Origin: a virus
Strand: one strand, 5' to 3'
Length of the DNA stretch: 47,037 bases
UHGV virus genome: UHGV-0206534
The position numbers were made by a program, and so were the translations under genes. Under the pieces are notes generated by a model. That model did no database searches, had not been told where the DNA came from, and worked only from the letters and a program-made list of their open reading frames with translations. This document shows, one piece after another, positions 2,395 to 46,100 of this stretch (position 1 is the stretch's first letter; each line of letters starts with the position of its first letter).

Positions 2395-2423
2395 TTGACG
2401 TAGATTGAGCGCCATCGTATAGT
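2395..2423 (+). promoter_or_regulatory. Sigma70-like promoter built on the conserved element: TTGACG-TAGATTGAG, 17-bp spacer, TATAGT
   Basis: -35 TTGACG at 2395-2400 and -10 TATAGT at 2418-2423, spacer 17 bp, upstream of the rightward early operon. Confidence 0.55.
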
Positions 2424-2453
2424 TACCACACCAACAAAAAAGAGGTGATGAAG

Positions 2454-2561
2454 ATGAGCAAGAAAACACAATATTCAGTAAGCAACTACTATAACGAGCG
2501 CGTCATGCGCTGGCACTGGCAGAAACTCAAAGCGCGCTACCTTGCACGGCAGGGCAAATAA
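2454..2561 (+). CDS. Small basic protein (35 aa)
   Basis: RBS AAGAGGTGATGAAG then ATG. Below the ORF-track length cutoff. Confidence 0.35.
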   Translation: MSKKTQYSVSNYYNERVMRWHWQKLKARYLARQGK

Positions 2562-2607
2562 ATAACATAGCGCCACTTCGGTGGCGCATAATCAGAGGTG
2601 ATAGAGA

Positions 2608-2724
2608 ATGGAAAACGAAAACAGCAATAACGTCGAGCATAAGAAAGAGGTCGTATTCGATGGCTACGTGGTGGATGAGCATGGCGAGGAGCTTGCTCAG
2701 TTCACTGGCGATTTTGGTTTTTGA
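2608..2724 (+). CDS. Small acidic protein (38 aa)
   Basis: RBS GAGGTGATAGAGA then ATG. Confidence 0.35.
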   Translation: MENENSNNVEHKKEVVFDGYVVDEHGEELAQFTGDFGF

Positions 2725-2737
2725 CAGGGGAGCAGAA

Positions 2738-2923
2738 ATGACCAAGGCAATCTACACGCGCACTCAACTGGAACCAGAAATGGGCGCAGTGAAAGCGCAA
2801 AACTTTATGATGGCGCAGGCAATGCATGCATACAGCAACGGCAAGCGCGTCTGTCGCGTTTTTAGTGGCGAAGGCAAGCACAGAGCACTCGAACAAGTCA
2901 TTGTGTCATCTGGTGGAAACTAA
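2738..2923 (+). CDS. Hypothetical protein (61 aa)
   Basis: Internal ATG with RBS GGGGAGCAGAA, within the 2660-2923 ORF. Confidence 0.4.
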   Translation: MTKAIYTRTQLEPEMGAVKAQNFMMAQAMHAYSNGKRVCRVFSGEGKHRALEQVIVSSGGN

Positions 2924-2938
2924 ACCGGTTTAGCAACG

Positions 2939-3217
2939 ATGAATAAATTACTGGCAGTGGTTTTACTGGTTATCGCTAACGCGGCAAGCGCTGAGACTAT
3001 ATGGGTCACAAAGTACGCGCTGACCCGTGGCATTCAGAAGTACGAAAGCGCACAGCTGTTTGCCGATGGTCAGGTGGCTGTGGTTGGCGATGTTTACTTT
3101 AAACGTGGTGAGTACTGGCTTGATGAGCAACAGGCAAAAGAGCATGCGGAGACTTTGCGGCAACGCCGTGTATCTGCACTGATGCGTGAGCTTGAGCGTT
3201 TGCAAGCGGTTAAGTGA
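2939..3217 (+). CDS. Small secreted protein (92 aa, N-terminal signal peptide)
   Basis: MNKLLAVVLLVIANAASA signal-like N-terminus. Confidence 0.45.
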   Translation: MNKLLAVVLLVIANAASAETIWVTKYALTRGIQKYESAQLFADGQVAVVGDVYFKRGEYWLDEQQAKEHAETLRQRRVSALMRELERLQAVK

Positions 3218-3223
3218 GGATTT

Positions 3224-3628
3224 ATGGATATCGAAATTAACGAAGTTCAGGAAATTATTAAAAACCTTGAGGGCGGCGGTGAATTCTCAATCAAAGAAGA
3301 AAAATACCTCAGGGTTGCAAGGATGTGCGTGCAGCTGGCTGCGGAGAATATGGCGCTGAAATTGGCAATACCTCAGCCGAGAAATGTTGAATTCGATAAC
3401 GACAGCATGGATGACGTATCGCTGGCTGAAGATGTTGGATTTAACGACGCAATTGGCCAGATTAAAATCAACATTAGTAAAACCCCCACCACCGATCGCA
3501 TCGTGGCCGGGATTAAGGCTGATGGGGTGGAGGAGTTTGCTGCGCATCTTGTGTCAATGGAATGTCATCTAGAGGCTAAATGGGCGAAGTCTTTCGTTTT
3601 GGAGGTGTTAAATGTCAAAGGTCGCTGA
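3224..3628 (+). CDS. Hypothetical protein (134 aa)
   Basis: RBS AGTGAGGA. Compact operon. Confidence 0.5.
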   Translation: MDIEINEVQEIIKNLEGGGEFSIKEEKYLRVARMCVQLAAENMALKLAIPQPRNVEFDNDSMDDVSLAEDVGFNDAIGQIKINISKTPTTDRIVAGIKADGVEEFAAHLVSMECHLEAKWAKSFVLEVLNVKGR

Positions 3629-3806
3629 TTTTGTGAAACGCATGGAGAAGCAAGGGCGCCAGTTTGAAGTTAACGGTAACTTTGTTGTTATCTCGCCGAC
3701 AAATGGACTTGCAATGTCCGACCTGATTGAGATGCAAAACCTAAATAAAAAAGGCGAACTTGCGGATTATATTTCCAAGCAGCTGCGCGAGGGAGCCGAC
3801 AAATGA
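3612..3806 (+). CDS. Hypothetical protein (64 aa)
   Basis: RBS GGAGGTG. Overlaps neighbouring genes. Confidence 0.45.
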   Translation: MSKVADFVKRMEKQGRQFEVNGNFVVISPTNGLAMSDLIEMQNLNKKGELADYISKQLREGADK

Positions 3807-4207
3807 GCAACTTTGATACTTCATCGCAAGTTAAGGCTCGCAAGTTACATCGTTGCTGTGAATGTTACGGCGCTATAAATCCAGGCGATACCTACGAGAA
3901 AGTTTTTGTCGTCGAGGATGGCGATGCCAGAAACTTCAAGACATGCCAGAAATGCACAGAAGCGCGTGACTGGCTGCTTAACGAAACTGATTGGCCTGAC
4001 GATATCGACGGCGAAGGGCATTCGTATTTCTTCACGATGCTGCGTGACCACCTCCGTGAGCAAGGCCGTGAAGGCTACCGCAAATACGCATTTCGCGCAT
4101 ATCGGATTGTCGTCCTGATGGATAAGCGCCGCATGGCTTATGCCAACGCATACAACGCGGAGACCGTGAAAATCCGCGATTCTCTTGCGCAAGGAGTCTC
4201 AGCATGA
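3803..4207 (+). CDS. Hypothetical Cys-rich (putative zinc-binding) protein (134 aa)
   Basis: CCECYG...CQKCTE motif pairs. ATGA overlap with the upstream gene. Confidence 0.5.
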   Translation: MSNFDTSSQVKARKLHRCCECYGAINPGDTYEKVFVVEDGDARNFKTCQKCTEARDWLLNETDWPDDIDGEGHSYFFTMLRDHLREQGREGYRKYAFRAYRIVVLMDKRRMAYANAYNAETVKIRDSLAQGVSA

Positions 4208-4608
4208 ATGATATCACCAAACTGGCGCAGAGCCTGAAAGCGGCAGCTGAAAAGGCAGGCGCTGATTCATGGCAAGCGAAGAAGATTAGCGGTGACTTTT
4301 ACGTCATTCGCAAAGGTAGTTACAAACTAGAATGCGGCTACACAACATATCAACCCATTGCCGAAATAGACCATAAACCCACGAGGGATTATGTCGCCAT
4401 GGCTAACCCTACCAACACCTTAGCACTGGTAGAGGCGCTGGAGAAGGCGCAGCAACGGATTGCCGAACTGGAGTCCCGCACCGTGAAGATGCCGCATCGA
4501 AATCTGGGGCACCATAAATTATTCCTTCTTTGCCCGTTCCCTTACTACGACGCAGAGGATATGGAGAAGGCTCTGGCCGCCGCTGGCATCAAGGTGGAGG
4601 CTGAGTGA
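4204..4608 (+). CDS. Ead/Ea22-like protein
   Basis: N-terminal KAAAEKAG...W and LALVEALEKAQQRIAELE are typical of lambdoid Ea22/Ead-family proteins. Confidence 0.5.
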   Translation: MNDITKLAQSLKAAAEKAGADSWQAKKISGDFYVIRKGSYKLECGYTTYQPIAEIDHKPTRDYVAMANPTNTLALVEALEKAQQRIAELESRTVKMPHRNLGHHKLFLLCPFPYYDAEDMEKALAAAGIKVEAE

Positions 4609-4784
4609 TGGCGGAACGTTGGAAAATTTATCTCACTATTGCATTCATCGGCTTGGGAGCTACGCCGATAAGTATGGTAGCGGCAAAGATTGACGTTCCT
4701 AATTGGTCGCTTATTGCCGGGCACTGCGGCGCGATTATAGCAAGATTTATTTGCGCAGAACTTGGACGGGGAGCCAACCAATGA
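4608..4784 (+). CDS. Small membrane protein (58 aa)
   Basis: ATGA start/stop overlap on both sides. One hydrophobic helix. Confidence 0.35.
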   Translation: MAERWKIYLTIAFIGLGATPISMVAAKIDVPNWSLIAGHCGAIIARFICAELGRGANQ

Positions 4785-5401
4785 CCAGCAAATTAACCAG
4801 AGAGCGTATTCAGCGAATTATCCGAGCCATTGATAGCGAAGCTTATGACGAGGAAGAAATAAGAGAGTGGTTAAGTTCTGATGAAATCATGGAGCTTTCC
4901 CGCATGGCGCTGGCCGCAATGGACAGCGAGCCGGTTGAACTGCCTCTTGACTACCTGCAGGGACACAAAGACGGTCTGGAGTGGGCCTCCCAACTGGCAG
5001 AAGCCAATCACCCTGAGACCGGAGACTGGCTTTACGATGACCCTATCGAGCTGGCAAAAGCTATTCGCAAAGGTCCAGATATGCCGCCAGTGCAGCCGTT
5101 AGCGGACAGCGAGCCGGATCGCAATCCTGTGCTGGCGTATGCCGACAGTTATCGTGATATGGCGAAACAAGGCGTCGAGTCAGTCCCAATATGGAGCGTC
5201 ATTACCGACATAGAGCGAAACATAGCGCCGCTATATCGCCACGCGCAGCCAGTGCCGGTAGTGCCGGATGAACTCAACACAAGAACAGCGAACGATGTCA
5301 TAAATGAGCATTTGAGCTGGAAAGACTATGGTGACGCAGAAGTGTTTTGTATCGCCTGGAACGCTTGCCGCGCCGCCATGCTCAACGGAGGTAAGCCATG
5401 A
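4781..5401 (+). CDS. Hypothetical acidic protein (206 aa)
   Basis: RBS GGGGAGCC before an internal ATG of the 4703-5401 ORF. Confidence 0.5.
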   Translation: MTSKLTRERIQRIIRAIDSEAYDEEEIREWLSSDEIMELSRMALAAMDSEPVELPLDYLQGHKDGLEWASQLAEANHPETGDWLYDDPIELAKAIRKGPDMPPVQPLADSEPDRNPVLAYADSYRDMAKQGVESVPIWSVITDIERNIAPLYRHAQPVPVVPDELNTRTANDVINEHLSWKDYGDAEVFCIAWNACRAAMLNGGKP

Positions 5402-5490
5402 AGACCTACATCATCCGCAGGCTTGTTGCTGTAGCCTGCGTTGCATTCTGGATTGCTGCTGCATTAGCCGTATACTTTATCGTGAGGTGA
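5398..5490 (+). CDS. Tiny membrane peptide (30 aa)
   Basis: ATGA overlap with the upstream gene. Single TM helix. Confidence 0.3.
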   Translation: MKTYIIRRLVAVACVAFWIAAALAVYFIVR

Positions 5491-5493
5491 TTT

Positions 5494-5789: not shown

Positions 5790-5844
5790 TGTTATGCGAA
5801 AACTGATGTACAATCACCTCATCAATCATCACCCACCAACCTTT

Positions 5845-5870
5845 AACCCGCTTCGGCGGGTTCTTTTTTT
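5845..5870 (+). terminator. Rho-independent terminator
   Basis: AACCCGCTTCGGCGGGTT followed by a T-run. Confidence 0.7.
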
Positions 5871-5882
5871 ATCTACGCCATG
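5871..5882 (+). promoter_or_regulatory. Variant conserved element ATCTACGCCATG upstream of the packaging operon
   Basis: The same 11-mer, TCTACGCCATG, recurs at 8262-8274. Confidence 0.35.
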
Positions 5883-5927
5883 TGGTAAGATATGTCCTAT
5901 GTGAGTTACTCAAAGGACACATAGAAT

Positions 5928-8261: not shown

Positions 8262-8292
8262 AATCTACGCCATGCTAGAATCTACGTCAAGG
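8262..8292. promoter_or_regulatory. Divergent promoter region with two copies of the conserved element
   Basis: AATCTACGCCATG (8262-8274) and AATCTACGTCAAGG (8279-8292). On the minus strand TTGACG, a 17-bp spacer and TAGATT form a canonical promoter for gene 7945-8235. Confidence 0.55.
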
Positions 8293-8323
8293 CGCATTGG
8301 CATAACTACATCACCGGGGCATC

Positions 8324-8563
8324 ATGAAGGCATACTCATCTTTTTCGTGGGAGCAGAAGGAAAAAATATACTCACTCGCAAGAGCTGGCGTGTCTGATGA
8401 GACACTGTGCGAAAGGTACGATGTGGATGAGGCCATTCTGCTGCGCATGTATGATGAGGTGCTGTGTGAGTTGCAGCGGCGCCGTGGATACAGCGGGCTG
8501 AAGACGATTAACGATTTCTTTCGGAATGTTGAGTTAAATAACGATGAGGGTGGTGATTTATGA
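8324..8563 (+). CDS. Hypothetical small HTH-like protein (79 aa)
   Basis: Helix-turn-helix-like segment ARAGVSDETLCERYDVDEAIL. Confidence 0.4.
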   Translation: MKAYSSFSWEQKEKIYSLARAGVSDETLCERYDVDEAILLRMYDEVLCELQRRRGYSGLKTINDFFRNVELNNDEGGDL

Positions 8564-9083: not shown

Positions 9084-9247
9084 TTATTGAAGGTAAAATT
9101 TTTACTGATTTGTCGGTCAGCGAGATAAAAGAGAAATTTTCAATGAACATCAACCAGGAAGGCGACGCAATTATCATCGACAAACACCAGGGCGCGCAGC
9201 TTATCGAAGTCCTGCAAAGCTGGGTTGATGGCGAGGAGATTGAGTGA
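9080..9247 (+). CDS. Hypothetical small protein (55 aa)
   Basis: ATGA overlaps on both sides. Confidence 0.35.
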   Translation: MIIEGKIFTDLSVSEIKEKFSMNINQEGDAIIIDKHQGAQLIEVLQSWVDGEEIE

Positions 9248-12590: not shown

Positions 12591-13142
12591 TTATTCTGTA
12601 ATCTCAATTTCAATGCTTTTATCACACTCATTACCCCATGTGTCCCACCCATCTGGAGCCTCTCTGGAAAATAATTCTATTCGCGGAATGTCGCCAACAA
12701 GCTCAATGATTTTATCGCGCACCAATGCAGGTTTTCTGCTGTGCTGCATTATTGGTTCTTCAATAATTGAGTGAACGCTCATAGATATTCTTTTTGGCTT
12801 TCCCTTTACAGCAAGAAGGCAGATTTCAGCATTTGATCTTGTCCAACGCCCCATCCCCCAGAAGTTAGTTAATGATCTCTTGTTTTTCTTTACCCATGTA
12901 AAGGCATTCGTCTTATACTCAAACCCCCACGCATCGATAAGCTCTAGCGCCTCCTTTATCTTTGGGAAGGTGGCCCACATAAAAAGAATGCAGTCATCAT
13001 CGGTTATTGATTGTATATCTAGCTTGCAAAGTTCTGAGTTTTTTGTTGTTTTGTAATGCCTCTCTGCACCTCCGCGATTTAAAGATTTATCATCGTATGA
13101 CCACGGCGGATCTGCATAAATAATTTTGTACTTCTTCATCAT
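12591..13142 (-). CDS. DNA N6-adenine methyltransferase (MT-A70/Dam-like)
   Basis: DPPW catalytic motif (IIYADPPWSY). 183 aa. Confidence 0.8.
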   Translation of the reverse strand: MMKKYKIIYADPPWSYDDKSLNRGGAERHYKTTKNSELCKLDIQSITDDDCILFMWATFPKIKEALELIDAWGFEYKTNAFTWVKKNKRSLTNFWGMGRWTRSNAEICLLAVKGKPKRISMSVHSIIEEPIMQHSRKPALVRDKIIELVGDIPRIELFSREAPDGWDTWGNECDKSIEIEITE

Positions 13143-14369: not shown

Positions 14370-14413
14370 CTTGAATCCCCTGTGTTTGTGTAACTACATC
14401 ATCGCCTACGATT

Positions 14414-14429
14414 CAATCTACGTCAAGGC
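14414..14429. promoter_or_regulatory. Conserved element TCAATCTACGTCAAGG in a divergent promoter region
   Basis: A -10 TAAAAT lies 13 bp downstream, serving the rightward lysis operon. Confidence 0.5.
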
Positions 14430-14467
14430 TATTGTGATAAAATAATCTGCATCACCGGAGGTAAAAA

Positions 14468-15694: not shown

Positions 15695-16204
15695 ATGATG
15701 CTTAATCAAGAATACATAAAGCAGATACTGCATTACTCGCCATCAAGTGGTTTATTTTACTGGAATAAACCCGGAAGAAAGATAGATGGAAAAGTGGCAG
15801 GTAGCCGCAAGAGCAATGGGTATCTACAAATAGAAATTGAGCGCAGAAAGTTTTACCTCCACAGATTGGCTTGGCTTTACGTTTATGGCGACATGCCGCA
15901 TGTTGAGGTTGATCACATCAATGGAATTAGGGATGACAACAGGATTTGCAATCTAAGGCTTGCAAGTAGATCTCAAAATGGAATGAACACTATCAAACCA
16001 GCAACAAACACATCAGGAATCAAGGGCGTTAGTTGGGATAAAAGGAATAATAAATGGTGTGCTCAAATAAAGATAAATCAAAAAACCGTATGGCTTGGCA
16101 GGCACGCATCAATTGAATCGGCATCCATAGCTATAGAACGCGCCAGGAGGGAGATTCACGGAGATTTTGCTTGCAACGGTGTGAGGGAAGAGGGGCAGGA
16201 TTGA
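15695..16204 (+). CDS. HNH homing endonuclease with AP2 DNA-binding domain
   Basis: HRLAWLYVYG...VDHINGIRDDNRICNLRL (HNH_3), then GVSWDKRNNKWCAQIKINQKTVWLGRHA (AP2). Confidence 0.8.
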   Translation: MMLNQEYIKQILHYSPSSGLFYWNKPGRKIDGKVAGSRKSNGYLQIEIERRKFYLHRLAWLYVYGDMPHVEVDHINGIRDDNRICNLRLASRSQNGMNTIKPATNTSGIKGVSWDKRNNKWCAQIKINQKTVWLGRHASIESASIAIERARREIHGDFACNGVREEGQD

Positions 16205-17257: not shown

Positions 17258-17724
17258 TTCACCTCCCCATTCAGTTCATTAACAATTAATGTTGCATAGC
17301 CAGCGATGTCTTTCCAGCTATCGTCGTATGTAGGGTCGCCATTCAGGATGCGGCCAATTTTATGCTGAATCATGTCGAGCGCTTCCTTCTGGCTCGCCGT
17401 CAGGTTGTCCCAGCCATCAACGTCGCGCATGGTGTCTTTCAGTGATTGCATGATATCCGCGCCGTCTTTGAATTTGCCATAGCAGCTGCCGCGCTCGGTG
17501 ATGATGGCTTCTGTGGACCTGGCGCGCCCATTCAGGTCATCATCAGTTACTGGCTCACGATGGGCGATAACAATATCGCCAGCCTTTTCGATATCCTTAT
17601 CTCGCCCTGCATAATCCGCGCTGAGGTAGTAGATTTTGCCACTGGTTGCTGATTTCAAAACAAGAACGGCATCTTCATGACCATTAAAATAATCAGCACT
17701 TCCTTTCAGGTATTTGTATTTCAT
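17254..17724 (-). CDS. Hypothetical protein (156 aa)
   Basis: Coupled ORF. Confidence 0.5.
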   Translation of the reverse strand: MKYKYLKGSADYFNGHEDAVLVLKSATSGKIYYLSADYAGRDKDIEKAGDIVIAHREPVTDDDLNGRARSTEAIITERGSCYGKFKDGADIMQSLKDTMRDVDGWDNLTASQKEALDMIQHKIGRILNGDPTYDDSWKDIAGYATLIVNELNGEVK

Positions 17725-17924
17725 AACTCCACCCTCAATGTAACTTTGTTTTTCTCATCCACGCTGAAGTGTTCGCGCACAAACGCATACATTTCTTCAG
17801 CGCTCCATTCACGCATTGCTACATAGCAGTGCGCGTAATATCTGACATCTCGCAGGCTTAGCGGCTGGCGCTTAGCGATAATCTCAGTCAGTACTTCCAG
17901 TGGTTCTTTGCGTTGTCTCGCCAT
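17721..17924 (-). CDS. Hypothetical protein (67 aa)
   Basis: First gene of the leftward operon. Confidence 0.45.
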   Translation of the reverse strand: MARQRKEPLEVLTEIIAKRQPLSLRDVRYYAHCYVAMREWSAEEMYAFVREHFSVDEKNKVTLRVEL

Positions 17925-17947: not shown

Positions 17948-17992
17948 TTGACGAATCTACGTCAATTAGTCAATACTCTGTGTTGTAGATTG
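17948..17992. promoter_or_regulatory. Divergent promoter region with conserved element and an inverted partial copy
   Basis: TTGACG (17948-53), AATCTACGTCAA (17954-65), and GTAGATT (17986-92) as an inverted half-site. Confidence 0.5.
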
Positions 17993-18731: not shown

Positions 18732-18963
18732 TGAAGGCATTCTGGAGTGCCCTCTATGCCAAGCCACTACTTCACATGCAGAGCAAGTATATCCGGCTTT
18801 TTCTATCGCGGGATGGGTTGTAGAGTGCTATGAGTGCGGATGCACAACAGGAAAGCATGCAACAAAAAACGGCGCCATTGAGTCATGGAACACCAGAAAC
18901 GGCCACCTCTACACTGCTGACGACTACAAACAGGATGCACTGGAGCGTGAGTGTGGACTTTAA
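18712..18963 (+). CDS. lar: Lar-family restriction alleviation protein
   Basis: CPLCQ...(21)...ECYECGC...AIESWNTRN matches the Lar-family CxxC...CxxC...A(I/W)..WNRR architecture. Confidence 0.6.
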   Translation: MKPMMNDEGILECPLCQATTSHAEQVYPAFSIAGWVVECYECGCTTGKHATKNGAIESWNTRNGHLYTADDYKQDALERECGL

Positions 18964-19423
18964 AACGCAAATACTCACGGTGATAGAGCGCTGCGGTGGT
19001 GCAACAAATGCGATGATACGCAAGCAGACTGGCATGACAAATCGAGCCAGTGTTACTGGCTATCTGATTGAACCGGAGAGCATGGGGTTTATTATTAAAG
19101 AGGAAAGCGTCAGCTATGGCAGGCGCTGCTTTAAGTATTTCCTCAATCCCGGCAACACTGCGCTTGATTTGGCTATTCAGGCTTATCTTGAGGCGAACCC
19201 TGGGCGCAAAAGCAAGCAGATAACGGAGGCTGTCGGAGTCAACTACACCATCATCAAGGCACGCATGCGCTATCTGGCAAGCATTGGTCAGGTTGACCGT
19301 GAAATGCTTCCCGGCGGCTCATGGAAATATTACTGGCAGGAGGTTATCCCGTTTGGCGTGAGTCGTGACAGGATGATGTTTGAAAAGCTGCTTGCCGGGG
19401 CGCGCCAGTCATGTGGTCGGTAA
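18935..19423 (+). CDS. Putative winged-helix DNA-binding protein; start uncertain (ATG 18935 or GTG 18947)
   Basis: Two wHTH-like segments: ILTVIERCGGATNAMIRKQTGM and ITEAVGVNYTIIKARMRYL. Confidence 0.4.
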   Translation: MHWSVSVDFKTQILTVIERCGGATNAMIRKQTGMTNRASVTGYLIEPESMGFIIKEESVSYGRRCFKYFLNPGNTALDLAIQAYLEANPGRKSKQITEAVGVNYTIIKARMRYLASIGQVDREMLPGGSWKYYWQEVIPFGVSRDRMMFEKLLAGARQSCGR

Positions 19424-19686
19424 AGCATAAATCAGGAACCGTGCTGTTTGTCACTGACTGTGAGCGAACGGCTGATAACCGCAGAGAAATGGGGTGGATA
19501 GTGGAAAAGTTAACGGCAATAGAGAGTCTGGCGAAAATAAACGAAGACAATAAGCGGGTTGTTACGGTAAACGTTGGCGTTTTGAAGGCCGCCCTTGCCG
19601 AGATAAAGGCGCACGTGGCCGTGAATGGTGAGGGTCTCATGACTCGCGCTATTATTAGAGCTTTAGAGGAAGGTATTAATAAATGA
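19411..19686 (+). CDS. Hypothetical protein (91 aa)
   Basis: Coupled ORF. Confidence 0.45.
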   Translation: MWSVKHKSGTVLFVTDCERTADNRREMGWIVEKLTAIESLAKINEDNKRVVTVNVGVLKAALAEIKAHVAVNGEGLMTRAIIRALEEGINK

Positions 19687-20027
19687 AACTACAACTCAGT
19701 GAAATCATGGAAGCAACAATCAGCGAACTGGATGACATTGATATGACACTTGCCTTTGAGATTGAGGCTATTGAGCGCCAACTTGCCGGTAATCATGATG
19801 CGGGCAGAGTATGGAAGGAGAAGGCCATGAAAGCGCGTGACCATATGAAACGCACCCGCGCGCTGGTTCGTATTCGCCTTGATAAGCTCTACTACGGTGA
19901 AGAAAGAATGTTGCATGGCGCCATTCTGGCTGAAATCCGCAAAACCATGCCTGTCGGGAAATTCATGGATGCAGTAAACCGTGCGAAAATTAACTGCGGA
20001 ATGCTAAATAAGAATAGTCCTCAATAA
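19683..20027 (+). CDS. Hypothetical protein (114 aa)
   Basis: ATGA overlap. Confidence 0.45.
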   Translation: MKLQLSEIMEATISELDDIDMTLAFEIEAIERQLAGNHDAGRVWKEKAMKARDHMKRTRALVRIRLDKLYYGEERMLHGAILAEIRKTMPVGKFMDAVNRAKINCGMLNKNSPQ

Positions 20028-24299: not shown

Positions 24300-24556
24300 C
24301 TTTGCAGCCTAAATGAAATATTACTCCCACCTATTGCAACATAACGGAATTTTCCGCAACCTTTTTTGACCCTGCACTTTCTGTATCGGTAGCGTCGCAT
24401 TTCATGGTAGGCCTTTTCTGTCAAAAGGAATATGAATCCCCTATCAATGGCGCCAGCAACCTCAACCACGGATTTAGACATTTGATCAATAATGTCTTTA
24501 GTGCTCATAGAAGACCAATCCACGCTATGACCACTATTAATTAATCCTTTCATCAC
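24296..24556 (-). CDS. Hypothetical protein (86 aa)
   Basis: ATGA overlaps on both sides. Confidence 0.4.
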   Translation of the reverse strand: MMKGLINSGHSVDWSSMSTKDIIDQMSKSVVEVAGAIDRGFIFLLTEKAYHEMRRYRYRKCRVKKGCGKFRYVAIGGSNISFRLQR

Positions 24557-25368
24557 AGCTTCTCCAGAATCGCCAGCACCTCACTCAACTCAGCAGAAGG
24601 AAGGCGCAAAAATTCTTCTGTCTCCTGTGCCACATGGCCCTCAGCGACAACCATGTGATCTGCTTCTTTCAGCAACTGAATCAGGCGGTCAATCGGCTTA
24701 ACTTTTTTGGCCTTGAGCGTTTTCGCCGTCACCTTATCTTTTCCCTGCGCTTTCGCTTCCTCAACGGCAGCATCAATAACGTTAACGGCATCATCGCCAT
24801 GCTCACGTGCGACCGCAACGGCGTTGGAATAGCTGATTTGGCCTGCATTGATGCGCTGCTTGATGGCGTCAGGCACGTCACCAAGTGACAAGTGCATCTG
24901 CACATCAGAAACCGAGCGACCTACTTTTTTGGCGATTTCTTCATTCGTCCACCCGAACCCTTTGAGGCGTACATAAGCCTTTGCACGCTCAAGCGGGTCA
25001 AGCTGCTTTCCTTGACTGGATGACACCATGAAGGCGATTTTATCCGCTTCATCGCCGGTGAAGTCTTTGCACTCAATGCGCGCAATTGGTACGCCGCGCT
25101 CAATGGCACGCAGTGCGCCAAGATAACGATGCTGGCCGTCAAGAATCTTGATGCGCTTTCCGTCAGCATCAGGAATAACAGTTAACGCCGGGATTGGCTG
25201 GCCTTATTCCCAGCACTGCGCGAAGTATTCAACGTGCTGCTCATCGGCTTCGCGGATGTTGTACCCAGGATCAAGATAAAGCTGGTCGACAGGAACCTGA
25301 TAACCTTTGTTGACCACGATTCCGCCGCGAGTTTCTTTGTCTGAGTAAATTTTTCCGAGAGATGTCAT
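24553..25368 (-). pseudogene. ParB-like nuclease/HTH domain gene interrupted by a single in-frame TAA (25204-25206)
   Basis: Continuous frame from ATG 25368 (RBS GAGGAAAAG). The N-terminal 54 codons end at TAA. The same frame continues ...GKRIKILDGQHRYLGALRA (ParB box) ... TNEEIAKKVGRSVSDVQMHLSL (HTH). Confidence 0.55.
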
Positions 25369-25800: not shown

Positions 25801-25811
25801 TTATTGTTGTT

Positions 25812-25853
25812 TCTACGTCATCACTATAGCTATACCCTCAATCTACGTCAACA
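25812..25853. promoter_or_regulatory. Conserved element (two copies) forming a leftward promoter: TTGACGTAGATTGAG, 8 nt, TATAGT
   Basis: On the minus strand, -35 TTGACG, a 17-bp spacer and -10 TATAGT. Same architecture as the 2395-2423 promoter. Confidence 0.55.
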
Positions 25854-28208: not shown

Positions 28209-28285
28209 TGGTTACCGCGACAGGATTCGAACCTGTAATCATCCGATTATGAGTCTGGTGCTTTAACCAGTTAAGCTAAACGGGA
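28209..28285 (-). tRNA. tRNA-Met-like (anticodon CAU), possibly degenerate
   Basis: Canonical T-arm ACAGG-TTCGAAT-CCTGT, D-arm GCTT/AAGC and anticodon loop CTCATAA, with encoded CCA. The acceptor stem has 2 mismatches and the anticodon stem 2 mispairs. Confidence 0.5.
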
Positions 28286-28288
28286 ATT

Positions 28289-28366
28289 TGGTGCACCATA
28301 CTGGATTCGAACCAGTGACCCACGGCTTAGAAGGCCGTTGCTGCTATCCTGCTGGGCTAATGGTGC
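28289..28366 (-). tRNA. tRNA-Arg (anticodon UCU)
   Basis: Acceptor GCACCAT/ATGGTGC, anticodon stem ACGGC/GCCGT, loop CTTCTAA, T-loop GGTTCGAATCC and encoded CCA. The D-stem is weak. Confidence 0.7.
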
Positions 28367-28372
28367 TGAATG

Positions 28373-28460
28373 TGGCGGATAGTACAGGATTCGAACCTGT
28401 GAACCGTTTCCGGTTTATCGGTTAGCAACCGACTGCTTTCGGCCTCTCAGCCAACTATCC
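28373..28460 (-). tRNA. tRNA-Ser (anticodon GCU), type II with long variable arm
   Basis: Acceptor GGATAGT/ACTATCC, anticodon stem GTCGG/CCGAT, loop TTGCTAA, long variable arm, T-loop GGTTCGAATCC and encoded CCA. Confidence 0.7.
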
Positions 28461-29009: not shown

Positions 29010-29169
29010 GTGCGCCTGCGCATTTTAGCGCTTCGCCGGTATTTTTTTTGATGAGGATTGTATCGTTAATCTCCTCTATCATTCCTGGACTTACCTCAAC
29101 GCTAAGGATTACCAGTAGCGACATTATAATTAACTCAATCAAGTTAACCTCCTGTGCTGTTTATTTAAA

Positions 29170-29210
29170 TCTACACCACCAATCAAAACCTGTCAACATG
29201 ATATAATGCG
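29170..29210 (+). promoter_or_regulatory. Promoter of the major tail gene (-10 TATAAT at 29203-29208); partial conserved element AAATCTACACC
   Basis: Perfect TATAAT 34 bp upstream of the ATG. RBS AGAGGA. Confidence 0.45.
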
Positions 29211-30061: not shown

Positions 30062-30361
30062 TCAATGATCGTCATCCTCCTCACTAATCGCAGTATCTAG
30101 CTGGCGGCGCAACATACACAGCGCGCCATGAGGCATAAACTGATTAGCCATCCCATCGAATATCTGGCGGTTTAATTTATTATCAATACGCGGCCTGATT
30201 GCAGACCAGCATGACCTGATTGCGCGATTTACCTGGCGGCGCTCCAGCATTGCGAGTCGTGCAGCTAACTCAATGGTCACAAGCGCATCAAGATACTGCT
30301 CGCAGGCGTAGCGGCTTTCGTCATCCATGATTAGCCTCATATACAGCTCGCGCAAATCCAC
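30062..30361 (-). CDS. Hypothetical protein (99 aa)
   Basis: Last gene of the inverted operon inside the tail module. Confidence 0.45.
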   Translation of the reverse strand: MDLRELYMRLIMDDESRYACEQYLDALVTIELAARLAMLERRQVNRAIRSCWSAIRPRIDNKLNRQIFDGMANQFMPHGALCMLRRQLDTAISEEDDDH

Positions 30362-30977
30362 GAGGGGTTAATGAGCGAAGTTGTTTTGTGCGCTTAGATT
30401 TGCCACCAAGATATGCCCACCCCCAAAACTTACCAATATGAGGCACCGGCCTTTTATCTGGCATGGCAAATCCATTTCCGCACCAGATGCACGTTTTTTT
30501 AGTGTAGGCATCACGCGCAGGCATGCGAGGGTGAAAAGTATCTTCCTCTCCAGTCATGTAGCCGCCGTACTCGAACGGGTGGAAATAATGGTCAGGTTTG
30601 CGCCAGTAGGTTGATAGCTTTCCAACTGGGTTTTCAACCATCCAAGGACAGCCGAAAACGTTACCAAGTCTTTCCGCCACCTTTGCCGTTGCTACTGCGC
30701 CGAGAATCTGCATAGTTGAGCGGCTGTGCTTCTCGCCGCTTCCGGCAAGTTCAGTGCAGGACGGGAAAGCGAAAATGATATCCGGCGCTGGATAATCAGA
30801 AAAATCTGAACGAGGAGTAATGAACTTATTCACGTAAACAAGATTAGGATACCGCATTTTAATTTTGTATTCGCCGTGGTCAGCTTCGTCTGCGTTAAAA
30901 CAATAAACCGCGTGCCCTGCATCAGCCCACGGCTTCACCATAATTCCAGACCCGTCAAAAAGTGACCATACAACCAT
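30321..30977 (-). CDS. DNA (cytosine-5)-methyltransferase, short form
   Basis: Motif I SLFDGSGI, motif IV AFPSCTELAGSG (PC), motif VI MVENPVG (ENV), motif X LTPRGFARAV. 218 aa. Confidence 0.65.
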   Translation of the reverse strand: MVVWSLFDGSGIMVKPWADAGHAVYCFNADEADHGEYKIKMRYPNLVYVNKFITPRSDFSDYPAPDIIFAFPSCTELAGSGEKHSRSTMQILGAVATAKVAERLGNVFGCPWMVENPVGKLSTYWRKPDHYFHPFEYGGYMTGEEDTFHPRMPARDAYTKKTCIWCGNGFAMPDKRPVPHIGKFWGWAYLGGKSKRTKQLRSLTPRGFARAVYEANHG

Positions 30978-31108: not shown

Positions 31109-31404
31109 TTTTTATCACTCACATTAATCAAAGACCAAGCCAGACAGCCGACGAACCCTACCATTGTCCCGCCGAAGAAAAGGTTAAGCACCGCTATTGC
31201 CATGGTATTTCTATGCTGCCTTGATGCGGCAATGCATGTAGGAATCATGTAAATAAAGCACGCAGCAACCACCGATAGTGAAACGATAATCATATCAGCA
31301 GCATATGAATAACTAAACGAAAATACCGGCTTTACAAAACCCATCATAACCATTGCCTGCGCAACAATCCCAACCACCAGAACCAAAACAATAAACTTTT
31401 TCAT
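31105..31404 (-). CDS. Superinfection immunity (Imm-like) membrane protein
   Basis: Three TM helices. SRQHRNTMAIAVLNLFFGGTMVGFVGCLAW matches the Imm_superinfect signature (HRN...AI..LN.F.G.T..G). Confidence 0.55.
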   Translation of the reverse strand: MKKFIVLVLVVGIVAQAMVMMGFVKPVFSFSYSYAADMIIVSLSVVAACFIYMIPTCIAASRQHRNTMAIAVLNLFFGGTMVGFVGCLAWSLINVSDKK

Positions 31405-31427: not shown

Positions 31428-31475
31428 CTCAATCTACGTCAGTCTTGCGCACCCTGTCAATGGTATAATTACGTC
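31428..31475. promoter_or_regulatory. Divergent promoter region: conserved element CTCAATCTACGTCAG plus rightward -10 TATAAT
   Basis: On the minus strand, TTGACA, an 18-bp spacer and TAGATT. On the plus strand, TATAAT at ~31466. Confidence 0.5.
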
Positions 31476-39100: not shown

Positions 39101-40996
39101 TTGCAGCCAATGGCTACTACACCAACTAACAAGCCAATCCCTTCTGAAGACCCGCGCGACCTGAAATTTAACGCCGGTAAGATTGATGAAGAGGTAAATG
39201 GAAGCGCTGATTACTATACTGATCGCTTTGGTATGCAGAGGCTGACGAATACCGGCAGAAATAACCTGTTTCAAGGCCAGATGACTCAGCAGGCTGATGA
39301 CTGGCTTTCTCAATTTAACCAGCAGGAATCTGAATTTCAGCAATTCCTTTTAAATTCTGGGTATCAGTTTTTGGGTGATTATGAAGATGGCCCATACACA
39401 ATAACAGCTAGAAACCAGATTATTCGTTATCAGAACGAGTTCTGGCGTTTAGATGCTGCAACCAATCCACCATATACAACTACAGGTGTCAATAGCACGT
39501 CATGGGCTGTTGATGTTACTCATTTGGTTAGTGTTGGCGATGCAACACTAAGACAAGACCTAGCTGCAGGTACTGTTACTATAGGCAACCAAAATACTGT
39601 AACTGTAGCAAAAGGACTTTTTTATATAATTCCAAACGCTATCGGAGACGGGGTAGCCGATGATACCTTGGCGGTACAGGATGCTATTAACAGGTGCGCT
39701 AAAGGCGTTTTAGTAATACCGCCCGGCAAAAAATACCGCTGCCGTAATTTAACGGTTCCTCATCCTATGGCGTTTTGGAGCGCGGCGCGCAGACTGGATA
39801 CCTGGCTAGAGCCTTATGGTAATGATGGCGGAACCATTCACTCTGGTGATTTCATTAAAATAAAAACAACTGGAACTGTAAGTTTCTTTAACATATCCCT
39901 GGAGGCAAGACACGTAACTCTAAGCTATGTTGATGGTCAAAGGCTTAATGGTGTCAATGGCGGTGATAACACATCTGGTGTCTATCAATCCGGTTTTGCC
40001 ATGTACAACTGCAGCGTATCCGGTTTTTCTGGGATAAACATTAGAGGCGGTAACAATAAATCCTTCGGCACTATATCCTCAAACACTCAGAGTGAGAGTT
40101 CAGGTCTTTCATGTATTGTTATTAATGGTGTAGATTGGCGCATTGACCATGCTTATGTAGGTCGCTCTAAAGAACGGCATGGTATTGAAGTATATGGTCA
40201 GTCAAACGCAATAACACATTGCGATTCTTATTTTAACTATCGGGACGGCATAGCATACGAAGTAACAACCGGTAACGTGCTAATTTCAATAGAAAACTGT
40301 GTTGTTAATAGTAATGGTGAAAACGGTATTCGCATTTCTGGCCCATATCAGCAGCAGGGCGGATGCAAAGTAATTAATAATAAAATATGGAATAACAGTA
40401 AGAATAGTGATGGTGTGTACCACAACATAGACATCAACTATGGCAGGGGTCACCAGGTGCATGGTAATCTGCACTATGAGTACACTGCATCGGCAGATGC
40501 GGGAGGTTCTCCACGGTGTGCTTTTTGTCTTAATCTTCGTGGTGGCGCCACTCTTTCTGGGGCTTGGAATGATAGCGTAGACCCATTGTATTCGTATAGG
40601 TCAGGAGCCATAAATGTCGAAACTCAGACAGTGACCAATCAGGATGGTTATAAAATAGGTTCTGGCGTTGATTTCTCAAAAGGAATAACCAATGATACAA
40701 GAATTGGATTCTCAGTAACGATAAACGGAGAGTCATTCCCCAGGGTTGAAATTGCTGCTGGTGCTGTTAAGTTAGGTAACGGGGCTTCGGCAACCTCTCA
40801 CGGTATACAGCAACTTGCCGCCTATCCCAATGTAACGATGGGCATTAGAGGTTTGGGTGTTGTTGGTAATTGGGAGACATCTCTTTTTCGTATTGGAACA
40901 TTTAGGCTATGGAGTGATGGGTCTGGAAACTTACGGGTCAAAAAAGGTAGTGACCCAACATCTGCAACCGATGGTGTTATTTTAACTTCTGCATAA
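39101..40996 (+). CDS. Tailspike/tail fibre with right-handed beta-helix (putative depolymerase)
   Basis: Conserved N-terminal anchor, then repeated G.N..I motifs typical of pectate-lyase-like beta-helices. Confidence 0.6.
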   Translation: MQPMATTPTNKPIPSEDPRDLKFNAGKIDEEVNGSADYYTDRFGMQRLTNTGRNNLFQGQMTQQADDWLSQFNQQESEFQQFLLNSGYQFLGDYEDGPYTITARNQIIRYQNEFWRLDAATNPPYTTTGVNSTSWAVDVTHLVSVGDATLRQDLAAGTVTIGNQNTVTVAKGLFYIIPNAIGDGVADDTLAVQDAINRCAKGVLVIPPGKKYRCRNLTVPHPMAFWSAARRLDTWLEPYGNDGGTIHSGDFIKIKTTGTVSFFNISLEARHVTLSYVDGQRLNGVNGGDNTSGVYQSGFAMYNCSVSGFSGINIRGGNNKSFGTISSNTQSESSGLSCIVINGVDWRIDHAYVGRSKERHGIEVYGQSNAITHCDSYFNYRDGIAYEVTTGNVLISIENCVVNSNGENGIRISGPYQQQGGCKVINNKIWNNSKNSDGVYHNIDINYGRGHQVHGNLHYEYTASADAGGSPRCAFCLNLRGGATLSGAWNDSVDPLYSYRSGAINVETQTVTNQDGYKIGSGVDFSKGITNDTRIGFSVTINGESFPRVEIAAGAVKLGNGASATSHGIQQLAAYPNVTMGIRGLGVVGNWETSLFRIGTFRLWSDGSGNLRVKKGSDPTSATDGVILTSA

Positions 40997-43467: not shown

Positions 43468-43653
43468 TTAATCACCACTGTATTCACGTAACGCTTCGAC
43501 AATTTTCATTGCATCATCAAGCAATGAATAACCATCGCTGACAACATAACCGCCATCATCAAGTTCGTTTAACTTAACAAGAAGATTGCGTAGCATTTCG
43601 CATTGCCACTCAGCATCAAAACTATCCGGAACCTCAATATCCATCTTCATCAC
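43468..43653 (-). CDS. Hypothetical acidic protein (61 aa)
   Basis: First gene of the recombination operon. ATGA overlap. Confidence 0.4.
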   Translation of the reverse strand: MMKMDIEVPDSFDAEWQCEMLRNLLVKLNELDDGGYVVSDGYSLLDDAMKIVEALREYSGD

Positions 43654-43675
43654 CTCACTTGTCGTTGTGTAAATG

Positions 43676-43720
43676 AATCTACATCAATCTACATCAAAAG
43701 GCAAGCCAAAATACGTCAAC
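43676..43720. promoter_or_regulatory. Promoter region with a tandem degenerate conserved element
   Basis: GAATCTACATCAATCTACATCAAAAGG and ATACGTCAAC. Overlaps the 3' end of the VRR-NUC gene. Confidence 0.45.
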
Positions 43721-44124
43721 ACTGCAATCTTTATCTGGTCGAGTCCACACGCCACCGCAGAGAACGCGCCAGCGCTGGCGCTATCGTTGAGAAACGGTAT
43801 CTGTCCTGGTTGCCATTTGCTAAGCGTTGAATCGTGGCGCTTCAACTCTATCGTCGCTTTATGCCAATCACCACCAGGAGTCAGGATTATCACATCAGAC
43901 ACCCCTGACCTGACACCTTTCCTTGCGCGCGATGCCAGATGCTGCACTGAGTTGCTTTTAGTCTCCTGAGATGGATGGAACCACAGCACATCAGGAAACC
44001 GATAATCCATCCACCACTTGAACGCTATCAAGTCTGAATCCTCATGCGGACACTCGCCACGGTAACCATCATCAAAAATTAATACCTTGTCACTCAGCTC
44101 ATGCTGCTTGAATCGCTTTTTCAC
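43684..44124 (-). CDS. VRR-NUC domain nuclease
   Basis: GVSDVIILTPGG...ATIELKRHDSTLSKWQ matches the VRR-NUC PD-(D/E)xK core. Confidence 0.6.
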   Translation of the reverse strand: MKKRFKQHELSDKVLIFDDGYRGECPHEDSDLIAFKWWMDYRFPDVLWFHPSQETKSNSVQHLASRARKGVRSGVSDVIILTPGGDWHKATIELKRHDSTLSKWQPGQIPFLNDSASAGAFSAVACGLDQIKIAVLTYFGLPFDVD

Positions 44125-44134
44125 TTTGCTCTCC

Positions 44135-46069
44135 TTAAAATTCTTTGCGGTGTATTATGTCTCGGCCTTTGTCGTTAAAGCGATGCGTGATGCGCTTTGG
44201 GGCACGGATAAGGCCAGTAAACGCCATGAATGCTTTTGCACTGCGGCAATTAATAAGGTTATCAATTAGATTCCTGTCTGACACATGATTTAACAAACCT
44301 TTAATCTTGAACTGATTTTTCAGATACTTCTCCTGTCTTCCAAATGGATAAAAGACCTCATTAGCCCATCCTTCCTTCCCGTTTTCCTTCATAATGAAAT
44401 AACGATAAACAACACCTTTTTCATCTTTCGTTAATTCAATCTTGAAGTCTTTAACTTCAGTCCATTCATTATCCGTATAAGCACGCTCATTGAGAGCCGC
44501 GTTAGGGTCGCGCAAAACGTGATCGCATTGACGGCAATAACGAGCTGTCGGGTCGTTCTTTGTGCCGCAACCATCATCAAAAATACGGATGCCGTGCTTG
44601 TCGAAACCACAGCGAATGAAGCTGAAAAACTCTTCGCATCGTCCATCTGGAGACGTTGAGTCTTTACCGATGCAGCGCCGTGCATATGGGCTGTTCATCG
44701 TCTGGCATTTAGGGCATGGAACCTGCTCTCCGCTGCGCTTGGCGCGCTGCGCTTCTGCTTCCTCAAGAATAGGGTCTTCGTACAGACCGCCCAACTCGAA
44801 CATGGTTCCGGTGAAGTCAAGGCAAAGATGGTTTTCTTTCACCAGACCTGCGGCAATATGGTCTGGCTTCAAAAGGCGCATTGGTCGGCCAAGCAACTGC
44901 GTCAGAAGCGTTAGTGACATGATTTTTCTCAGGATGACAGACGTGTCCCAATATGGGATGTTGACGCCAGTCGTCAGGCAACCGATTTGCAACGTGTATT
45001 TTTTACGCCCGGTGGCTGCATCTTTCAGTGCTTTTCGTCTGGCTTTCTGACCCATATCCTCGGTAACAATGGAATAACTGCCTTCTGGTAAGTATTTTGC
45101 AGCCTCCTTGCAATGTTTTTTACCGGCGCAGGTAATGAGTACACCGAGTCTGTCGCGCGTAAGCTCCATGACTTTTAGCATTATTTTTTGCGTCAATGTA
45201 CCCTGCTTGAGGATTTCTTCCTGCATCTCTTTTAGCTGGCTATCAGTAAAGTCCTGCACTCCGTCAGCGTCACTACTGGCAAACTCATGCAGATCGTATT
45301 GCAAGTCCTCGATATCCTGCCCGCCAAAAATTGTCGGCACCAGAAAACCAAGGTCGACAAGGTATTTCGTGCTGATGTTGACGATTTCGTGTTTCCAGTA
45401 AGCCCCCTTTATCGACTCAACTCCGCGAAATGGGCTGCCGGTGTAGCCAATGACAATCACCTCATGCCCATACTTCGCTTTACAGCGCCGGTTAAGTTCA
45501 TTCATGATGACACCGTACTGCGTCTCTGGCTGCTCTGATATTATGTCCTGCCAGTTAACCTGATGGCATTCATCAACCAGTATGTAGCGCGGGGAAAAGT
45601 CAGAAAGCAAAGATTTTGTCACTGTGCCATCATCTGCCGTCTTATCAAAAAGGCCATTTATTATTGTGCCCTCCGTTCCCGCGATAAGCGGATAGGCATA
45701 TGCCTTACGCCCAAGTGAAGCGCTAAACAAAGAGTTTTTTACGCTCAGGTTCCAAAGCTCCTCAGCATCCTGCTCAATAATTTCGCCTTGTCGTGCGATG
45801 ACAAGACCCTCCCACTCCATATCCTGGAAACGACGGGCAATCATGGCTATCATGATGGTCTTACCGGCGCCAACTGAAGCGGTGACATAACTTGGCTTTG
45901 GCTGCTTACCAAACTTGCGGATAACCTCAGCTGTCTTTTCATATACCAGCCACTGATAGGGGCGCGGTTCAATTTCCCCGGTATGGATGCTGTCCCGCAG
46001 CTTATCCATATCCAGCTCAGCAATCATTGCATCAATTTTTTGCACTTCATCCACCTTTGTGTTGCTCAA
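44135..46069 (-). CDS. SF2 (DEAD/DEAH-like) DNA helicase with C-terminal zinc ribbons; TTG or internal GTG start
   Basis: Walker A SVGAGKT, DECH box and multiple CxxC pairs. The codon at 46069 is TTG. An alternative GTG at 46045 is preceded by AAGGTGG. Confidence 0.7.
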   Translation of the reverse strand: MSNTKVDEVQKIDAMIAELDMDKLRDSIHTGEIEPRPYQWLVYEKTAEVIRKFGKQPKPSYVTASVGAGKTIMIAMIARRFQDMEWEGLVIARQGEIIEQDAEELWNLSVKNSLFSASLGRKAYAYPLIAGTEGTIINGLFDKTADDGTVTKSLLSDFSPRYILVDECHQVNWQDIISEQPETQYGVIMNELNRRCKAKYGHEVIVIGYTGSPFRGVESIKGAYWKHEIVNISTKYLVDLGFLVPTIFGGQDIEDLQYDLHEFASSDADGVQDFTDSQLKEMQEEILKQGTLTQKIMLKVMELTRDRLGVLITCAGKKHCKEAAKYLPEGSYSIVTEDMGQKARRKALKDAATGRKKYTLQIGCLTTGVNIPYWDTSVILRKIMSLTLLTQLLGRPMRLLKPDHIAAGLVKENHLCLDFTGTMFELGGLYEDPILEEAEAQRAKRSGEQVPCPKCQTMNSPYARRCIGKDSTSPDGRCEEFFSFIRCGFDKHGIRIFDDGCGTKNDPTARYCRQCDHVLRDPNAALNERAYTDNEWTEVKDFKIELTKDEKGVVYRYFIMKENGKEGWANEVFYPFGRQEKYLKNQFKIKGLLNHVSDRNLIDNLINCRSAKAFMAFTGLIRAPKRITHRFNDKGRDIIHRKEF

Positions 46070-46100
46070 TCTACGTCACAATAGTAGACTTAATCTACGG
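46065..46100. promoter_or_regulatory. Divergent promoter region with conserved element and a partial copy
   Basis: CTCAATCTACGTCAC (46065-79), an inverted TAGTAGACT, and AATCTACGG (46092-100). Confidence 0.5.

Follow-up and report, generated by a model that had tools for sequence, protein, structure and literature searches.

The virus genome UHGV-0206534, analysed here over its full length of 47,037 bp (the window), represents essentially the complete genome of a virulent siphophage of Klebsiella that belongs to the pIS4-A/KpV2811/ZX4/MK54 group, and each of its eight divergent gene junctions, together with one internal site, carries at least one copy of a short asymmetric element, hereafter the box, which reads tTGAYGTAGATTGa towards the gene that it precedes. 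The 11-14 bases of the box occupy core promoter regions where operons begin, as a reading made from the sequence alone had proposed; they supply the -35 hexamer (TTGACG) in some promoters and the -10 hexamer (TAGATT) in others, and they are conserved among related phages beyond the bases that the host polymerase needs. The explanation tentatively favored here, at slightly less than even chances and on the strength of the DNA sequence, is that these sites are early promoters for the host sigma-70 polymerase in which the box also acts as a shared operator for a phage protein.

The box and its copies

The exact core TGACGTAGATT (reverse complement AATCTACGTCA) is found on the + strand at 2396-2406 and on the - strand at 8279-8289, 14415-14425, 17954-17964, 25840-25850, 31431-31441 and 46068-46078. 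With up to three mismatches allowed, the 15-mer form gives 10 matches against 1.14 expected, and the pattern TGNYGTAGATT is matched exactly 14 times in the window, against an expectation of 0.15 from dinucleotide-preserving shuffles, none of 100 of which reached 14. Eleven of the 14 are wholly non-coding, two reach into the final codons of a gene, and the one at 40126 is within the tail-fiber gene; in a genome with a coding fraction of 91.5%, the binomial tail for at least 12 of 14 non-coding copies (counting one with a 3-nt overlap) is about 1e-11. All the copies listed in the sequence-only reading exist, within 0-3 nt of the positions given there, but that list had missed the copy at 29168-29178 and the degenerate ones at 8303-8313, 14391-14401 and 14444-14454.

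Nearly all copies point towards the gene they precede, the closest one lying 15-34 nt before the start codon and the second one 39-50 nt before it. A sequence logo was built, as were the footprints discussed below, from 45 related stretches out of the 120 returned by a 14-mer scan of IMG/VR, which also gave many chance matches. Its information spans from one base before the TG to two bases after TAGATT, and no position at a fixed distance on either side exceeds 0.6 bit, which argues against a partner element at a fixed distance. A literature search for the exact sequence returned only a polymerase chain reaction primer in a paper on a Pantoea phage and unrelated matches; the box and its use in two positions are not described in the literature searched, although phage-specific promoter or operator boxes are already known as a kind.

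The copy in the tail-fiber gene, at 40126-40136 (+), is a single exact TGGTGTAGATT, and the 9-mer GGCGCATTG behind it recurs after the box of junction 3/4; the copy may be due to chance or may be an internal signal.

Gene direction in the window alternates in about 16 blocks, which creates eight divergent and eight convergent junctions, most of the latter with hairpin terminators. The leftward blocks hold the small genes, the anti-restriction, methylase, nuclease and replication/recombination genes and the tRNA operon, and similar early-type content also occurs in the rightward block 2454-5401 and in the first genes of the block starting at 18020. The terminase, portal, lysis, capsid, connector and tail genes form rightward blocks.

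Two hexamer roles for one box

The sites of the box along the window are the following.

2395-2409 (+): box TTGACGTAGATTGAG; TTGACG at 2395-2400 as -35, TATAGT at 2418-2423 as -10
5870-5880 (-): one-mismatch copy TGGCGTAGATA, directly after a terminator (5845-5862) and before TGGTAAGAT at 5883-5891
8262-8290 (-): pair with a 17-bp period; distal TTGACGTAGATT at 8279-8290 as -35, proximal TGGCGTAGATT at 8262-8272 with TAGATT as -10
8303-8313 (-): degenerate copy TGATGTAGTTA over the ribosome-binding region of the rightward gene at 8324
14391-14454 (-): three co-oriented copies, TGATGCAGATT at 14444-14454, TTGACGTAGATT at 14415-14426 and TGATGTAGTTA at 14391-14401, between the unit running from 14369 to 12399 and the lysis operon
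17954-17991 (both strands): divergent inverted pair of junction 7/8, TTGACGTAGATT at 17965-17954 (-) and TGTTGTAGATT at 17981-17991 (+), on either side of the invariant TTAGTCAATACT
25810-25851 (-): best-conserved promoter, junction 9/10; TTGACGTAGATT at 25840-25851 as -35, TATAGT at 25823-25828 as -10, and a proximal TGACGTAGAAA at 25810-25820, at about +1, followed by an invariant 5' leader
29168-29196 (-): TTGACA at 29191-29196 and, 17 nt on, box TGGTGTAGATT at 29168-29178 with TAGATT as -10
31431-31460 (-): TTGACA at 31455-31460 and, 18 nt on, box cTGACGTAGATT with TAGATT as -10
43676-43718 (-): internal tandem of overlapping TGATGTAGATT at 43676-43686 and 43686-43696 (10-bp period), with a partial copy TGACGTATTTT at 43708-43718
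46068-46102 (-): two copies 24 bp apart, TGCCGTAGATT at 46092-46102 and gTGACGTAGATT, before the DEAD-box helicase gene

A -35-like hexamer is provided by the TTGACG of the box at 2395, 8290, 14426, 17965 and 25851 and by an upstream TTGACA at 29196 and 31460. A -10-like hexamer, with A in its second and T in its sixth position and 16-18 bp from a -35, is provided by TATAGT at 2418 and 25828 and by the TAGATT of the box at 8262, 29168 and 31431. The box thus acts as the -35 in TTGACG-17-TATAGT (2395, 25851), in TTGACG-17-TAGATT, where the -10 belongs to a second copy (8290/8262), and before GATGAT, 17 nt downstream of the TTGACGTAGATT at 14415-14426; it acts as the -10 in TTGACA-17-TAGATT (29196) and TTGACA-18-TAGATT (31460). 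Both the double role of the element and the spacings quoted in the sequence-only reading (17 at 2395, 25851, 8290 and 29196; 18 at 31460) are therefore confirmed. These hexamer pairs rank among the best promoter-like sites of the genome, and the box sites are probably host sigma-70 promoters, at which transcription would start 5-9 nt downstream of the -10. The box does not act as an extended -10 element; this possibility was rejected because its TG falls at -17/-16 (TGNYG-TAGATT), two bases out of register with the -15/-14 position required.

The promoter at 2395 is directed rightward, serves the small-gene unit from 2454 to 5401 and is kept in KpV2811 and in the natural isolate VLCpiS13d. The pair at 8262-8290 lies 26 nt before the start of the gene running from 8235 to 7945, the box at 31431 also 26 nt before the gene that starts at 31404, and the inverted copies of junction 7/8 lie 29 and 28 nt before the genes that start at 17924 and 18020, respectively. 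The putative promoter at 25810-25851 would drive the unit from 25800 to 23590, which includes a ParB-like gene, and that at 29168-29196 the leftward tRNA-Ser/Arg/Met operon, from 28460 to 28209. This operon (28209-28460, - strand), fed by the box promoter, carries tRNAs Met-CAT, Arg-TCT and Ser-GCT. The tandem at 43676 lies inside the replication/recombination unit, 25-31 nt before the gene that starts at 43653, which is followed by exoVIII, Erf and SSB genes, and no canonical -35 partner was found for it. The copy at 5870, whose function is uncertain, is upstream of a putative small terminase gene. At 46068-46102 the copies overlap the promoter region of the primase gene that starts at 46120. 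The claim that the TTG start codon of the helicase gene lies inside a box is probably wrong, as the TTG at 46069-46067 is only the first in-frame start, and GTG 46045, 5-6 nt after AAAGGTGG, is likely the real one, in agreement with the RefSeq start in KpV2811.

Across the clade, 152 unique box contexts were assigned, by thresholds of our own, to the -35 role (59), to the -10 role (41) or to neither (52). In the pairs with a 17-bp period the distal copy combines a perfect TTGACG with a sloppy TAGATT and the proximal copy the reverse, both halves being recognizable across genera; conservation is higher in whichever half acts as the hexamer, which shows that the hexamer role is real too. Among the copies with neither role, RTGACGTAGAAA occurs at about +1, right after the TATAGT of junction 9/10, in all genomes, and lacks the essential final T of a -10. 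In phage swi2 an inverted copy lies at the +1 of the TTGACG-17-CATAGT promoter of junction 5/6, and in phage seszw reverse-oriented copies occur in the spacer and at the +1 of a rightward TTGACC-17-TAGTAT promoter at junction 3/4. The positions taken by the box (-35, -10, spacer or +1) all overlap the core promoter, from -35 to +12, as those of an operator would.

Much of this would also suit a plainer explanation, namely that the boxes are a family of host sigma-70 early promoters with no dedicated regulator, comparable to the early promoters of T4 or to the promoter family of phage 9NA, and that the additional bases reflect common descent, homogenization or selection on promoter strength or kinetics. 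For about two-thirds of the unique copies a canonical partner hexamer lies 16-18 nt away, the box sites are among the top-scoring promoter-like sites, the hexamer-serving half is the better conserved in the 17-bp pairs, and both the co-orientation of the copies with the downstream gene and the narrow distance of the last copy from the start codon are what promoters would display. Furthermore, most early genes, including those of both obvious DNA-binding proteins, are dispensable or lost, and in 9NA a different extended module, AAAATAATTC-TTGACG-GATTACA, occurs 14 times, always at the -35 position. However, the plain family does not explain why the conserved +1 copies have TAGAAA, and so lack the essential T at -7, why inverted and reverse-oriented copies occur, why the internal tandem at 43676 is fully conserved although it has no -35, or why the half of the box that serves as no hexamer is invariant across genera beside a hypervariable spacer, in both promoter contexts. 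We consider this explanation, the main rival of the favored one, less likely than not.

The copies that lack canonical partners could instead point to a self-sufficient promoter, or an activator site, for a polymerase reprogrammed by a phage factor, either a MotA-like activator or a sigma-like protein that reads one element of about 11 bp, in the way that gp55 of T4 reads TATAAATA; transcripts would then start a few bases downstream of every copy and be expressed as a middle class. The box is indeed the sole strongly informative element, its last copy falls in nearly all units within the same 15-34 nt of the start codon, the 43676 site and both copies of junction 7/8 are without canonical -35 partners, and the boxes used as -35 are centered near -30, as MotA boxes are. 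Against it, the perfect TTGACA or TTGACG hexamers with conserved spacings of 17-18 bp indicate ordinary sigma-70 use, the TAGAAA copies and the inverted +1 copies fit a promoter role poorly, and the early genes themselves need a promoter readable by the unmodified host polymerase. In a Pfam scan of 50 of the approximately 84 predicted proteins, which covered nearly all small early ones, no family of the sigma, anti-sigma or Arc/Cro type appeared, and among the 49 scanned with Pfam or PHROGs no sigma, AsiA-like or MotA-like protein was detected. No polymerase-sized open reading frame without an assigned function is present in the window, and no phage RNA polymerase is annotated in the relatives. 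A reprogrammed polymerase is therefore judged distinctly improbable.

Conservation of the box as a unit

Phages of the pIS4-A/KpV2811/ZX4/MK54 group are about 90% identical to the window across 50-69% of its length, and farther relatives, at 72-80% identity, are the Salmonella phages seszw (Skatevirus) and Vi II-E1 (Macdonaldcampvirus) and the Escherichia phage swi2 (Swiduovirus). KpV2811, VLCpiS13d, seszw, swi2 and Vi II-E1 all carry the box at the orthologous junctions; the identity of their orthologous proteins to those of the window is about 24-100%, mostly 50-95%. Neither 9NA, a Salmonella phage, nor the Pantoea phage PSKM has the box. Thus, the suggestion that the element is specific to these phages, and is not a generic host promoter consensus, holds for the 11-14-mer as a unit.

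Footprints, which gave the most informative test, were obtained from alignments anchored on sequence outside the box. The 27 distinct versions of junction 9/10 do not differ in the -35 TTGACG and the TAGATTG that adjoins it, in the -10 TATAGT, or in the +1 copy and the leader, whereas the other 9-10 bases of the spacer are hypervariable. At junctions 13/14 and 11/12, where the box serves as -10, the TAGATT, the adjoining TGAYG and the upstream TTGACA are invariant and the remainder of the spacer varies. The sigma-70 holoenzyme reads neither the six bases that follow a -35 nor, in this register, positions -17 to -13. Since the non-hexamer half is invariant amid a variable spacer, the 11-mer is constrained as a unit, whichever hexamer role it plays. 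Such constraint beyond the bases read by the polymerase is a property of operators, and it suggests that the box is probably also the landing site of a phage regulator. The idea that a phage regulator co-recognizes the element, put forward in the sequence-only reading, is favored by this invariance. Footprints anchored outside a motif are also a computational way to tell a promoter from an operator.

The genome-reduced seszw mutants 290S and 20S have kept the boxes at all junctions while losing up to 31 genes, a winged-helix gene among them.

A second promoter class and a possible switch

The structural and lysis operons do not use the box. They are preceded by an extended -10 element, TGNTAWAAT, with its TG at -15/-14, which is matched 11 times in the window against 4.0 expected, 10 of the 11 matches being on the + strand; no recognizable -35 accompanies it. 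The promoters below lie directly before the units named and are kept in relatives.

9968 (+): TGNTAWAAT, portal
14435-14443 (+): TGNTAWAAT, lysis
20171 (+): TGNTAWAAT, capsid
25859 (+): TGNTAWAAT, connector
29199 (+): TGNTAWAAT, major tail
31461 (+): TGNTAWAAT, tail

The view of the box as a genome-wide promoter code must be narrowed, as the box characterizes a single class of units (those of DNA metabolism, of small genes and of the tRNAs), nearly all of which run leftward. At the junctions, a gap of 0-8 nt separates the TG of the TGNTAWAAT element from the -35 hexamer of the box promoter opposite, and this back-to-back overlap implies that the two promoters cannot hold polymerase at once. 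By arithmetic, junctions 11/12 and 13/14 have the center of the box at about -41 relative to the late promoter, and junctions 5/6 and 9/10 have it at about -30. The idea that the box activates the late promoters from a fixed position was rejected: box and TGn are 7-8 nt apart at two junctions, 18-19 nt apart at another two and 2-3 nt apart at the 5870 copy.

If the box is a shared operator, the two classes could be coordinated as follows. The host sigma-70 polymerase would read the box promoters, with the box as either TTGACG or TAGATT hexamer, while the whole 11-14 bp would be an asymmetric operator for one phage-encoded DNA-binding protein. Sitting on the -35, -10 or +1 region of all box promoters, this protein would shut them off jointly; its occupancy would free the overlapping extended -10 late promoter, or help it where the box is centered at about -41, and the junctions that pair a box promoter with a late one would flip from early to late. 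A more specific version, in which one small and probably monomeric protein (e.g., a winged-helix one) reads the asymmetric 11-bp box and switches up to eight bidirectional junctions at once, appears unlikely; if true, it would be a genome-wide, multiplied switch of the lambda OR or phi29 p4 type in a virulent siphophage.

Candidate DNA-binding proteins

Three genes for proteins with a resemblance to DNA-binding folds deserve mention.

18953-19423 (+): tandem winged-helix protein, PHROG 1687, "MarR-like", first candidate binder
8324-8563 (+): three-helix protein of 79 amino acids, helix-turn-helix (HTH)-like, second candidate binder, in every box-bearing genome examined
24556-25368 (-): ParB/KorB-like HTH protein (HTH_ParB 7.5e-12, KorB 1e-6)

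The winged-helix protein is restricted to exactly this clade (151 phage records). Its AlphaFold model (pLDDT 80) has two helix-helix-helix-hairpin units, and Foldseek matches it to TFIIIC tau-B and to MarR-type proteins; the fold is thus confirmed, and a two-domain monomer would suit an asymmetric two-part site. The protein, listed under 18935 as an HTH candidate in the sequence-only reading, remains a candidate only, its gene being deleted in viable seszw mutants. The protein at 8324, from the same list, is weakly HTH-like: its small helical model is confident, and it has no significant fold match and no sequence match in the PDB. The products of 8324-8563, 17721-17924 (67 amino acids, adjoining the inverted pair) and 19683-20027 are found in all box-bearing genomes examined and are kept in the 36-kb minimal seszw. 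The third protein of that list, the XRE HTH protein at 9244, was rejected, as it is not conserved in the relatives that keep the box, being absent from KpV2811, seszw, swi2 and E1. No candidate binder has a homologue in 9NA or PSKM.

The ParB/KorB-like protein is widely and highly conserved in the clade. In the window its gene has an ochre codon at position 55 (25206-25204), where KpV2811 has TCA and the window TAA; across its 271 codons it is otherwise 98.9% identical to the KpV2811 gene. Translation restarting at ATG 25029 would yield the C-terminal 158 amino acids, HTH included. As a binder it is largely excluded, because the gene is interrupted here and VLCpiS13d has lost it and yet keeps all its boxes.

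The conservation of this protein would nevertheless be of interest if the box were a signal unrelated to transcription: a centromere-like ParB/KorB site, a recombination sequence at module boundaries, a homing-endonuclease target or the site of a host factor. The boxes do sit at mosaic module boundaries, and HNH endonucleases are numerous in the clade. Yet the box is asymmetric, where a ParB or KorB site would be palindromic; the boxes outlast the ParB-like gene in VLCpiS13d, and the stop codon of the window's gene tells the same way; and a strict placement and orientation in core promoters, 15-50 nt from start codons, is unexpected for recombination or cleavage sites. We know of no enterobacterial transcription-factor consensus that matches the box. 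A role outside transcription thus appears very improbable.

Objections to a shared operator and significance

Several observations weigh against the favored explanation, that of sigma-70 promoters with a shared operator. The spacings between copies (10, 17, 24-25 and 30 bp) show no single helical phase, the orientation of the copies towards the downstream gene also fits a pure promoter element, and at the internal site, 43676, a repressor would find no obvious sigma-70 partner to act on. No binding protein has been identified beyond candidates, of which the winged-helix gene is missing from the viable seszw mutants 20S and 290S, and the ParB/KorB-like gene is nonsense-interrupted in the window and reduced to 25 codons in VLCpiS13d. 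The reachable literature contains no transcription-start or timing data for the clade, and the genome papers of the relatives are silent on promoters. Moreover, 53 of the 81 genes of seszw are removable (PMC9825161), from which it follows that the host polymerase alone must suffice for growth and that any regulator would be a modulator, probably non-essential in the laboratory.

Mutants 290S and 20S, with the 69 sequenced seszw mutants of the source paper (PMC9825161), are at hand for tests of candidate regulators. Phages of the clade (the pIS4-A/KpV2811-like Klebsiella phages, Skatevirus, Swiduovirus and Macdonaldcampvirus) have been isolated widely for therapeutic use and have served in genome minimization, and their transcription program is undescribed in the reachable literature. 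Taken together, the two promoter classes, box and extended -10, map about 16 transcription units in a way that can be tested, and they provide a compact, portable set of early and late promoters for engineering. Should a binder exist, the system would be a simple model for the coordination of many divergent junctions through one site in a small virulent phage.

Other features of the genome

A probable replication origin lies at 2085-2350, between the helicase unit and the box at 2395. It contains about 12 GGGAAC(T) iterons in two clusters of opposite orientation, e.g., GAGTTCCCGAGTTCCC at 2149-2164 and GGGAACTCGGGAACTC at 2277-2292, which flank an A/T-rich segment at 2170-2260. An MT-A70 adenine methyltransferase is encoded at 12591-13142 (-), and the open reading frame at 30321-30977 (-) is 53-59% identical to the cytosine-5 methyltransferases of 9NA and PSKM. 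Methylation of the box is conceivable, as its core includes ACGT. An HNH-AP2 homing endonuclease gene, at 15695-16204 (+), follows the lysis genes.

Comparison with known systems

Phage 9NA shares the alternating divergent and convergent plan of the genome and has a repeated promoter module in which TTGACG is followed by an extension containing GATT, in about 14 copies, mostly on the strand of the small-gene units; its module differs in sequence, is always at -35 and has an A/T-rich upstream part. The 14 copies of AAATAATTC in 9NA are found, e.g., at 1454, 3995, 8698, 12331, 15872, 43190 and 48625, and about 10 of them precede a -35 resembling TTGAC(G/A), an extension resembling GATTACA and, 16-18 bp downstream, a -10-like hexamer. 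The existence of this module suggests that extended early-promoter families may be a general trait of siphophages with alternating blocks.

With the 12 KorB operators of plasmid RK2 the boxes have in common their number, about a dozen sites over promoters, and a ParB/KorB-like HTH protein encoded in the clade. KorB operators are palindromes, whereas the box is asymmetric and persists in a phage without the ParB-like gene, so that it does not qualify as a palindromic, ParB-dependent parS or KorB site. In the middle promoters of T4, too, a phage-specific box replaces or overlaps the -35, and -35-dependent and -35-independent promoters define temporal classes. The MotA box of T4 is fixed at -30 and works with AsiA, while the box of these phages also occurs at -10, at +1 and in the spacer, and no homologues of MotA or AsiA were found among the 49 of about 84 predicted proteins scanned; the sites are thus not middle promoters of the T4 type, nor do they have the character of promoters for a T7-like single-subunit phage RNA polymerase.

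In its proposed working, the system would most resemble the dispersed asymmetric operators of P1 C1 and the switches at phi29 p4 and lambda OR. P1 is temperate, and C1 is its immunity repressor, while no lysogeny module appears in the annotations seen for this clade; the box is unrelated in sequence to the C1 operator, and no C1 homologue was seen. In P1, one asymmetric site of more than 10 bp (17 bp in P1) likewise recurs at many dispersed promoters of one phage, overlapping core promoter elements, singly or in pairs and in both orientations.

The phi29 p4 and lambda CI-Cro systems differ in acting at one junction, compared with eight here, and through inverted repeats instead of asymmetric single boxes; regulator, direction and timing are, for the box, our own inference. 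The likeness lies in the divergent, overlapping promoters, at which one protein represses the early promoter and favors the opposing one, as is proposed for the box; in the position of the proposed operator, which covers the -35 or -10 of one promoter and falls at about -41 or -30 relative to its neighbor; and, for the A3 promoter of phi29, in late promoters that, like the extended -10 class described here, do without a -35.

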